From the NCBI RefSeq assembly GCF_003334355.1, contig NZ_QOWP01000055.1: DNA of 10,891 nucleotides; one strand, written 5' to 3'. Of the stretch, positions 4,801 through 6,515 are shown one piece after another. The DNA comes from Escherichia coli (GTDB lineage: Bacteria; Pseudomonadota; Gammaproteobacteria; Enterobacterales; Enterobacteriaceae). The notes under the pieces were generated by a model. It did no database searches. It was not told where the DNA came from and worked only from the letters and a program-made list of their open reading frames with translations. Within the stretch, counting starts at the first letter, position 1. Each line of letters begins with the position of its first letter. Position numbers and translations under genes: made by a program.

Positions 4801-4834
4801 ATAAAACGCACCCCAGCAGCCAGTGCTACTGGGG
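4801..4834 (-). terminator. Putative intrinsic terminator downstream of trkG (minus strand)
   Basis: Minus-strand RNA CCCCAGUAGC-ACUG-GCUGCUGGGG (stem about 10 bp with one G-U) followed by UGCGUUUUAUU; the U-tract starts 4 nt after the stem, so only moderate. Confidence 0.5.
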
Positions 4835-4920
4835 ACGGAGGGGTTGCTGGTAAAGTTAGGTATTGGATCAATGAGTGAGTCAACATAATATTAAACTCAC
4901 AATTATAAATCAGCCATATA

Positions 4921-6378
4921 TTAGGAGCACCAAAAAAAACCTGAAAACAATATAATAACAGGATAAATTTCAAGGCGACCAAGAATCATAGCTATGCACA
5001 TTAAACATTTTGCAATGTCATTAAGCACTCCGAATGACGATGCAGTAGCCCCAAAACCTAATCCCATATTATTAATACATGCAGCCACTGTTGCAAATGA
5101 TGTAAGAAAATCATATCCCATACCATTTAACACCAGTATAAAAAACACCGTGAAGAGAGTATAAAGAAAAAAGAAACTCCATACAGACCTCATTACACGA
5201 TCTGTAACTATCTTCCCTCCTACATTTACACTCAACAACGCTCTGGGATGAGAAAGCTGATTTATCTCGTGTTTGCTTTGTTTGAAAAGTATAAGAAATC
5301 GAAGTGACTTAATTCCACCACAAGTTGAACCTATACATCCCCCAAAGAAACTTGACAACAGCAAAAACACTATCGTGTGCGTGGGCCAACTTGCATAATC
5401 CTGCGTAGCTAAACCATTATCAGTGAGCATGGAGCTGGCAAGAAAAAACGAATGAATAAAACTTCCATGCAAGTCATACATACCTATATGCCAGACCTGG
5501 AAAGAGGTAACAATGATCACCCCTAAGGCTATTAACAGAAAGAAACGAAGTTCAATATCTCTGATTAAAGGTTTTATCGTTTTCCTGCTAATAACAATAT
5601 ACCAAAGAGTGAAGTTGAAAGCCGATAGCAGGGAAAAAGAACCAGCCACCAGCTCAACCAAATAGTTATTAAAATATCCGATACTCTCGCTATGAGTTGA
5701 GAAACCACCAAGCGAAACTGTGGAAATCCCGTGACAAATAGCATCAAACAAAGGCATTCCTGCAAGTCTATAACAGACAATACAAGCAATACCTAATAAA
5801 GAATAAGTTATCCACAGTGTCCGTGACGTATCGGCCAGGCGGGGAGTGAGTTTGTCATCCTTAAATGGCCCCGGCATTTCTGACTGATAAAGCTTTGCAC
5901 CACCAATACCCAATAATGGCAATACAGCAACCGCCAGAACAATAACTCCTAAACCACCTATAAAATTTAACTGTGACCGATAGTACAAATATGCCCGAGG
6001 TAATGAACTAACATCATCAATTACAGTTGCTCCTGTTGTTGTTATTCCAGAAACCCCTTCAAACAGAGCATCAATGAACGTTAAATTAAGTTCTGAGTCA
6101 ATCCATAAAGGGAATGCACTAATAACAGAAAACAAAATCCAAAACATTACAATTATAATAAACCCATCACGGGTACGTAATTGAATGCCAGATTTCTTAG
6201 TTGTATACCACGCTCCGCCACCAATGCAAAAAAATATAACGAAAGTTATAAAGAAAACGAACAGGCTTTTTTCTTTATAAAACAATGCTACAACCATTGG
6301 TGGCAACATTGAAAGACTATAGAGCCAAACCAGGAACCCACACATATGAGTAACAACTCTTACATGAGATGTATTCAT
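4921..6378 (-). CDS. trkG: Trk-system potassium uptake protein TrkG (TrkH/KtrB-family membrane subunit)
   Basis: Polytopic membrane protein of 485 aa from the MNTSHVRVV... start (ATG 6378..6376; the listed ORF has 6 extra N-terminal codons). Matches the E. coli TrkG sequence as recalled, with TrkH-family motifs GITTTGATV and GGIKSLRF. AT-rich relative to flanking phage genes by eye. Confidence 0.9.
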   Translation of the reverse strand: MNTSHVRVVTHMCGFLVWLYSLSMLPPMVVALFYKEKSLFVFFITFVIFFCIGGGAWYTTKKSGIQLRTRDGFIIIVMFWILFSVISAFPLWIDSELNLTFIDALFEGVSGITTTGATVIDDVSSLPRAYLYYRSQLNFIGGLGVIVLAVAVLPLLGIGGAKLYQSEMPGPFKDDKLTPRLADTSRTLWITYSLLGIACIVCYRLAGMPLFDAICHGISTVSLGGFSTHSESIGYFNNYLVELVAGSFSLLSAFNFTLWYIVISRKTIKPLIRDIELRFFLLIALGVIIVTSFQVWHIGMYDLHGSFIHSFFLASSMLTDNGLATQDYASWPTHTIVFLLLSSFFGGCIGSTCGGIKSLRFLILFKQSKHEINQLSHPRALLSVNVGGKIVTDRVMRSVWSFFFLYTLFTVFFILVLNGMGYDFLTSFATVAACINNMGLGFGATASSFGVLNDIAKCLMCIAMILGRLEIYPVIILFSGFFWCS

Positions 6379-6515
6379 ATCTAAATATTCTTTCAATTAT
6401 AACCACCTTGCTGCAATATTATGATTATACTGTATAAAATTTAACTCCTCTTAGATCTTACTTCACTGTTCCTTATGAAACAATCATCAAAATGAATCAT
6501 ATTGTAGTTAAGATT

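Follow-up and report, generated by a model that had tools for sequence, protein, structure and literature searches.

The window analysed here is the whole stretch of 10,891 nucleotides from contig NZ_QOWP01000055.1 of an Escherichia coli assembly (GCF_003334355.1); it holds part of a Rac-like prophage, in which the potassium transporter gene trkG stands between the lysis gene Rz and the gene ynaK. We consider it very probable that trkG is a lysogenic-conversion (moron-type) gene of the Rac-family lambdoid prophages of E. coli: a horizontally acquired, AT-rich gene supplied with a promoter, closed by a terminator of the phage backbone and spread by recombination. The gene lies between genes that are adjacent in relatives, although those relatives have a different lysis cassette and a 35-codon open reading frame (ORF) in the gap. 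Its G+C content is 38.0% against 48–50% around it, a difference that persists after correction for amino acid composition. A preliminary description of this DNA, made from its letters alone, had called trkG a textbook moron; position, composition and, from the literature, autonomous expression agree with this wording, whereas the own, imported terminator that it implied is not there. All positions below are those of the window, and the features are collected in Table 1.

The translated trkG reading frame is 100% identical to E. coli TrkG, and the sequence is that of the K-12 protein. It scores 415.4 bits against the TrkH-family profile TIGR00933 (cut-off 331.15), which together with the identity confirms the potassium transporter recognized earlier; PF02386 has been assigned, as a precomputed annotation, to a protein identical to the one encoded here. 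Against NF008020, the TrkH equivalog profile, TrkG reaches 446.9 bits, far under the cut-off of 866, and on this profile evidence it belongs to a clade separate from TrkH. Four pore-loop glycine motifs (T119-T121/G122, S228-L229-G230-G231, D326-N327-G328 and N443-M444-G445, in the numbering of a 491-residue protein) are unchanged in an alignment of 14 TrkG-clade proteins. TrkH, the core-genome paralogue in E. coli, is a member of the same PF02386 family with the same four-repeat pore architecture, and both proteins share the cytoplasmic partner TrkA. The two genes differ in G+C content (53% for trkH, 38% for trkG), and trkG is repressed by H-NS (PMC9898762). Na+-dependent K+ uptake with TrkA has been shown for K-12 TrkG (PMC9898762).

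The closest known counterpart of the locus is found in K-12, where Rac matches window positions 4530–6960 with 99.75% identity (6 mismatches over 2431 bp). The annotation of the matching K-12 stretch comprises the end of ydaW, rzpR (a pseudogene), rzoR, trkG and a shortened ynaK. This trkG of the cryptic prophage Rac was reportedly described by Schlosser et al. in 1991. The K-12 gene (b1363; Tanudjaja et al. 2022, PMC9898762) has the same G+C content of 38%, the same neighbours Rz/Rz1 and ynaK, and the same spacer and hairpin on its two sides. In K-12 Rac, deletions on one side removed Q, S and R together with some 20 bp at the beginning of Rz; on the other, the loss runs from ynaK, which keeps about its first 85 codons and lacks the 3′ two-thirds, up to and including the terminase and head genes. 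The window, unlike K-12 Rac, retains Q, S, R, Rz/Rz1, full-length ynaK, terS and terL. The earlier view that this is a less decayed relative of K-12 Rac is thus right for this region, with its lysis genes, ynaK and terminase genes kept. The prophage as a whole is still not intact: it is defective, because an IS3-family insertion sequence cuts the portal gene after 125 codons.

Strain PSS-12 matches the window at 100% over positions 141–10891. In that strain the element occupies the Rac site, with ttcA on one side and uspF/ompN on the other, and it also carries xisR, rcbA, ralR, pinR and an integrase gene split by IS5, the remainder being riddled with insertion sequences. Rac membership is therefore indicated by the collinear near-identity over rzpR–trkG–ynaK and, as judged on PSS-12, by the ttcA integration site and the Rac early genes. 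The trkG region is present in 1524 of 5426 complete E. coli genomes; it is adjoined by full-length ynaK in 945 of them, and in 577 of the 5426 no less than 80% of the full window is found at a single location. The 'vB_EcoS-...R' records, which may be induced virions or predicted prophage regions, are given no weight here as evidence of viable phage.

Related prophages that have ynaK, the glycosyltransferase-like gene and the terminase genes in common differ in what fills the slot between ynaK and the lysis genes. The slot holds LT-IIa enterotoxin genes in SA31-1 and phage Rac-SA53, a KTSC-domain gene with a hypothetical gene in 52F4, and in LY180 and 214-4 a gap of about 400 bp in which no gene is annotated. 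Jobling et al. (2012, PMC3252337) had already located LT-II loci with a phage lysozyme gene on one side and a parB-like gene on the other. The LT-II locus of Rac-SA53 and its relatives resembles trkG in occupying the same slot, before the parB-like ynaK or before terS, and in having a homologous hairpin and T-run ahead of ynaK. It differs in its cargo, an AB5 toxin, and in its lysis cassette, which contains a GH108 endolysin and no lambda-type Rz. Moreover, the LT-II genes were inserted upstream of the conserved 35-codon ORF and a second hairpin, whereas the trkG module replaced both.

Among the classical lambdoid morons (in the sense of Hendrix and Juhala; bor and lom of lambda, stx between Q and S), trkG shares the properties of an extra gene with deviant composition that is expressed from the prophage and adjoins a terminator. 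It departs from them in two respects: the terminator it uses is part of the backbone and occurs with an empty slot as well, and the linked module extends into the final 75 bp of Rz. The bor gene of lambda has the same post-lysis position but lies on the opposite strand, while trkG is co-oriented with the late operon. As stated previously, no bor-like gene follows Rz: a tblastn search with lambda Bor over the window gave nothing meaningful (best E = 9.5), and the same query finds bor at 100% in lambda.

The hairpin between trkG and ynaK has a core stem of 10 pairs at 4811–4834, seven of them G-C, is extendable to 4807–4837 and is followed by the T-run TTTTATT (4800–4806). Its folding energy is −22.5 kcal/mol (z = −3.1 against shuffled sequences), and it is by far the best of the four terminator-like sites found in a scan in which 2.0 ± 1.2 were expected, a count unremarkable in itself. 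Alignments of the window with prophages devoid of trkG show homology from the start of ynaK to about position 4865, thus across the T-run and the hairpin. In four such prophages, the homologous stretch folds as a 15-pair hairpin directly before an identical T-run, and three of the pairs are changed on both sides. Because this pre-ynaK stretch and its hairpin exist in prophages without trkG, the alignments identify the hairpin and T-run as an element of the phage backbone ahead of ynaK rather than one imported with trkG. A hairpin after trkG had been correctly seen before; it is only not trkG's own.

The AT-rich 3′ flank that arrived with trkG contains a weak hairpin, GTGAGT-N14-ACTCAC. In Rac-like prophages without trkG, we observed a conserved 35-codon ORF (MWKPTGD...LIDGKPQY...) and two successive hairpins before ynaK. 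The second of these pre-ynaK hairpins, with its T-run, is homologous to window positions 4800–4837; the window itself has neither the 35-codon ORF nor the other hairpin. A hairpin downstream of the E. albertii trkG was considered as a counterpart of a hairpin (hairpin A) of the backbone upstream of ynaK, with about 25 of 33 bases alike by eye, and was rejected as BLAST gave no significant match.

On its other side, trkG is separated from the Rz stop codon by 137 bp of 25.5% G+C if the annotated ATG is taken as the start (6379–6515), so the AT-rich interval of some 130 bp reported before trkG was essentially right. Past the Rz stop codon, alignment of this spacer revealed no homology to lambda, Qin-like or other phages. 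Around 70 bp nearest trkG are homologous to the region upstream of the chromosomal trkG of E. fergusonii, and within this homologous stretch lie a TATAAT, a Shine-Dalgarno sequence and a TTG codon. This TTG, at 6396, probably is the true start of TrkG. The Shine-Dalgarno-like sequence lies 6 nt upstream of it, and none can be read in front of the annotated ATG at 6378. Most TrkG orthologues are 491 residues long, align across the extension (MKEYLDM...) and begin at an equivalent TTG or GTG; those of E. fergusonii, Pectobacterium and Enterobacter have GGAGG, GGGAG and GGAG motifs ahead of these codons. In the Citrobacter orthologue the annotated ATG is replaced by CTG and the TTG is kept. The profile phrog_1916 likewise has 491 positions, of which TrkG matches 7–490. 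The reference start, giving 485 residues, thus appears to be 18 nt too far downstream, and the non-coding spacer would shrink to 119 bp.

Published work supports an autonomous trkG promoter. Genomic SELEX (systematic evolution of ligands by exponential enrichment) assigned a constitutive RpoD promoter to trkG (PMC5811629), and a reporter fragment from upstream of trkG drove luciferase (PMC9898762). In K-12, the mRNAs of trkG and trkH are present at about the same level, and trkG expression rises in delta-hns and delta-hns delta-stpA strains (PMC9898762). As K-12 Rac has neither Q nor the late promoter, trkG expression in K-12 must be autonomous. Two candidate promoters can be read from the window. 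TTTAAA-18-TATGAT, which overlaps the Rz stop codon, is the sole promoter-like site on the minus strand upstream of trkG in a consensus scan (9 of 12 matches). The perfect TATAAT at 6424–6429 has a weak −35 and would leave a leader of about 21 nt to the TTG; the sequence GAGTATAAT is conserved in E. fergusonii. We infer that it may serve as the −10 element of trkG.

In a lysogen, a sigma-70 promoter in or near the AT-rich spacer would transcribe trkG, and H-NS would dampen this transcription without abolishing it, as the K-12 literature indicates. Transcription would most likely stop at the hairpin and T-run that precede ynaK by 16 nt, so that the backbone hairpin would keep moron transcription out of the packaging genes. 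TrkG together with host TrkA (and SapD/TrkE) would provide Na+-dependent K+ uptake as a partial backup of TrkH, as the literature suggests. Upon induction, by analogy with lambdoid late operons, RNA polymerase modified by Q and coming from the late promoter below Q would read through both trkG and the hairpin. The latter situation leaves room for a lytic role, because trkG lies inside a Q-dependent late operon and is kept with remarkable uniformity. By replenishing or maintaining K+ in the cytoplasm, a late burst of TrkG could keep translation and the membrane potential going until the holin triggers, and the advantage for the lysogen would then be secondary; we regard this proposal as improbable.

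Less probable still is that trkG is carried passively in the late operon and is expressed under Q antitermination alone, serving the lytic cycle rather than the lysogen. The gene is indeed co-oriented with the late genes and inside their operon, no convincing consensus promoter precedes it, and the hairpin downstream belongs to the backbone. However, K-12 Rac lacks Q, the late promoter, S and R, and nevertheless trkG mRNA is roughly at the level of trkH mRNA and the fragment 6379–6889 drives luciferase (PMC9898762); genomic SELEX adds a site for the RpoD holoenzyme at trkG (PMC5811629). In addition, trkG is kept in about 1524 of 5426 complete genomes, many of them with decayed prophages, and retention in decayed prophages argues for selection in the lysogen.

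The unit that travels with trkG begins inside Rz. Lambda R/Rz is 93.6% identical in nucleotides over window positions 6591–7435, and in an alignment of the window with K-12 Rac, lambda and a Qin-like prophage Rz is the same in all up to 6591, including the Rz1-coding overlap. The last 75 bp of Rz are only about 70–80% identical to the lambda and Qin-like copies, which makes a sharp mosaic joint at 6591. A query spanning the Rz 3′ variant and the spacer (6420–6600) was found in 1552 complete genomes, 1540 of them at no less than 80% coverage. This is nearly the number that have the trkG region, and the small remainder consists of short matches. In IMG/VR, Rz and this spacer precede trkG at all 48 loci, which are 96–100% identical in protein, whereas the holin and endolysin beyond them vary. 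Since the Rz 3′ variant is about as frequent as trkG and upstream of it in every copy examined, the co-travelling unit, as delimited by these comparisons, comprises the Rz 3′ end from about 6591, the spacer, trkG and a short 3′ flank. The most plausible route for such a unit is homologous recombination in the conserved Rz/Rz1 and ynaK regions. After a single entry into the phage lineage it would have spread in this way as Rz 3′ end, spacer and trkG, with no mobility functions of its own.

A discrete self-mobile cassette resembling a transposon, an integron or a miniature element, with its own promoter and terminator and inserting independently, would also account for the sharp compositional boundaries at the Rz stop codon and about 55 bp past the trkG stop codon. 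It would fit the TrkG-clade genes of E. fergusonii, Pectobacterium, Enterobacter and Citrobacter, whose chromosomal locations differ. The coding sequence has a direct repeat of 9 bases, TTATAATTG, at both ends, at 4897–4908 just past the trkG stop codon and at 6391–6402 overlapping the TTG start; by rough estimate it is within chance for such AT-rich sequence. We nevertheless consider a mobile cassette extremely unlikely. A search around trkG for flanking or terminal repeats, direct or inverted, for mobility genes such as a transposase or integrase and for transposon-like ends retrieved only short AT-rich matches at chance level. The flanks are constant in every phage or E. coli copy examined, with the Rz 3′ variant before trkG and ynaK or terS after it, the terminator is common to backbones without trkG, and the Enterobacter orthologue has the composition of its host, as expected of a resident gene and not of a recent arrival. 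The term 'self-contained' in the preliminary description accordingly goes too far, given the backbone terminator, the extension of the module into Rz and the lack of any sign of independent mobility.

The compositional contrast that supports horizontal acquisition had been noted by eye and is borne out by computation of G+C and codon usage. At third codon positions the G+C content of trkG (GC3) is 32.3%, while the ten phage genes in the flanks range from 45.6 to 52.0% in G+C and from 44.7 to 54.9% in GC3. The left flank has 48.4% G+C and the right flank 49.7%; the interval 4801–6515 has 37.3%, and all other 1715-bp segments outside it have at least 43.3%. Over 484 trkG codons GC3 is 0.322, compared with 0.503 over 2273 flank codons (z = 7.2). 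Recoding TrkG with the synonymous codon usage of the flanks gave an expected G+C content of 45.6 ± 0.8%, and the observed 38.1% is about 9 simulated standard deviations lower. Because of this gap, the amino acid composition of a membrane protein explains only a few points of the AT-richness, and most of it is a true compositional signature. The idea that AT-richness is a by-product of a very hydrophobic protein rich in Phe, Ile and Leu, without foreign origin, explains the few percentage points by which recoded TrkG falls under the flanks but is already refuted by this synonymous-site analysis, and the non-coding spacer is AT-richer still. The Enterobacter cloacae orthologue, with 70% amino acid identity, has a GC3 of 72% in a genome of 58% G+C; the protein sequence therefore does not force low G+C.

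The TrkG clade is widespread in Enterobacterales. The best full-length relatives outside E. coli are those of E. fergusonii (79% protein identity), Citrobacter (77%), Pectobacterium (76%) and Enterobacter (70%), all in non-phage chromosomal surroundings and at different sites. With 56.7% G+C and a GC3 of 72%, the Enterobacter gene matches its own genome, whereas the Pectobacterium gene has 42.8% against ~50–52% in its flanks; that of E. fergusonii has 42.4%. No direct donor of the Rac allele was found among 5.8 billion database proteins, none of which exceeded 79% identity at full length or 88% over part of the protein. An E. albertii contig (L064, positions 1–1400) carries a divergent trkG allele with 79% nucleotide and 88% protein identity. 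This allele has 39.5% G+C and a GC3 of 32.8% and lies beside genes for NleF, a phage-type phosphatase and a DUF1482 protein. The history of trkG on prophages may thus be longer, or more often repeated, than the uniform Rac allele would suggest.

Several observations weigh against parts of our interpretation of trkG as a moron with its own promoter and a single origin. The hairpin that closes the gene is found in the backbone of relatives without trkG, so an own terminator, usual for a moron, is missing, and even the terminator function of the hairpin at 4800–4837 is a prediction. In the region 4500–7000, the consensus scan found 5 promoter-like sites where 6.1 ± 2.5 were expected, which is not above chance, and it missed the TATAAT at 6424–6429 for want of a −35 element. 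The primers of the published reporter match the window exactly at 6379–6889; this fragment spans most of Rz, so that its activity does not localize the promoter to the spacer. The high-affinity H-NS motif TCGATAAATT, with up to 2 mismatches allowed, gave 22 matches against 16 ± 4 expected, and these are not clustered in the cassette. The E. albertii allele implies either that the association with phages predates the Rac allele or that there was more than one capture, while the single acquisition into the phage lineage is our inference from the uniformity of the copies.

Some of the neighbouring genes deserve a brief description. The N-terminal domain of YnaK also matches phage DNA-methyltransferase families, and ynaK overlaps the glycosyltransferase-like gene; in PADLOC, the YnaK protein matches only through this N-terminal domain, which is shared with type II methyltransferases. 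TrkG, the orf189 product and the glycosyltransferase-like protein had no match in PADLOC. The glycosyltransferase-like gene itself is assigned to phrog_842 ('beta-glucosyl-HMC-alpha-glucosyltransferase'), and its RefSeq name is 'GREB1-related'. Together with ynaK, just upstream of terS, it may form a pair associated with DNA modification or packaging. Between it and terS, an 83-codon ORF (2880–3131) matches positions 145–218 of 319 in phrog_309 (terminase small subunit) and could be a remnant or a split domain of terS. Searched against Rfam at gathering thresholds, the whole window gave no match.

A second AT-rich island occupies positions 7900–8936, in the slot between Q and the holin gene, where Stx phages carry stx and Rac-SA53 carries pertussis-like toxin genes. 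Its ORF orf189 has 38.9% G+C (45.5% would be expected from flank codon usage), encodes hydrophobic stretches and matches phrog_11870, a family of unknown function; a Pfam search with it gave no match. The island further contains a small convergent ORF on the plus strand (8016–8177) behind a strong Shine-Dalgarno sequence and a hairpin at 7901–7922. A strong hairpin downstream of Q (8831–8856) is such as a tR′-type terminator would be expected to have. At the far end, positions 10366–10891 upstream of the NinB-like gene are mostly non-coding and AT-rich (36% G+C, down to 32%), and relatives carry hok/mok or rem in this area. Beyond 10818 most relatives are no longer homologous, and near window position 10873 an IS4-family element (IS421) begins in PSS-12.

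Table 1. Features of the window and, in the last line, the corresponding stretch of prophages without trkG.
Feature	Position	Strand	Remarks
IS3-family element end, inserted in portal gene	1–124		99–100% identity to IS3 copies in L066 and L035; PSS-12 annotation
Portal (DUF4055) gene, first 125 codons	120–497	−	
terL	500–1810	−	
terS	1782–2876	−	
Glycosyltransferase-like gene	3067–4020	−	317 amino acids
ynaK, full length	3992–4783	−	263 amino acids; ParB/Srx-like N-terminal domain; phrog_620, E = 1e-90
Hairpin and T-run resembling an intrinsic terminator	4800–4837	−	Ends 16 nt before ynaK ATG
AT-rich 3′ flank that arrived with trkG	4866–4920 (~55 bp)	−	No counterpart in relatives without trkG
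trkG, coding sequence as annotated	4921–6378	−	485 amino acids; TrkH-family membrane subunit of Trk K+ uptake system
Probable N-terminal extension of TrkG	6379–6396	−	TTG start 6394–6396, giving 491 amino acids
AT-rich non-coding spacer	6397–6515	−	Presumed trkG promoter and H-NS-binding site
Shine-Dalgarno-like AAGGTGG	6403–6409	−	6 nt upstream of TTG
Candidate −10 TATAAT	6424–6429	−	Perfect consensus, weak −35
Candidate sigma-70 promoter TTTAAA-18-TATGAT	6496–6525	−	Overlaps Rz stop codon
Last 75 bp of Rz, diverged variant	6516–6591	−	Upstream edge of trkG-linked module
Rz, i-spanin	6516–6980	−	154 amino acids; phrog_13 Rz-like spanin, E = 9e-78
Rz1, o-spanin	6575–6760	−	61 amino acids; embedded in Rz; lipobox LVVVGC in translation
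Lambda-type endolysin	6977–7453	−	
Lambda-family holin	7457–7807	−	TIGR01594
orf189	8146–8715	−	AT-rich ORF
Q antiterminator homologue	8937–9479	−	phrog_753
DUF1364/HNH-like gene	9476–9766	−	
NinB-like DUF1367 gene	9766–10365	−	
35-codon ORF and two-hairpin stretch	L009 5092–5322; L005 6790–7017; L004 6793–6910		In prophage sequences without trkG

Taken as a whole, the finding is correct, ordinary and already in the literature: earlier publications cover the low G+C content of trkG and its location in Rac as well as the promoter of its own and the repression by H-NS. To this we make three modest additions, none of which alters the understanding of the trkG system. The final 75 bp of Rz belong to the module with which trkG spreads, the start codon of trkG probably is misplaced by 18 nt, and the position after the lysis genes and before ynaK is a shared cargo slot of Rac-like prophages, taken by trkG or by LT-II genes and closed by a terminator-like hairpin of the phage backbone.

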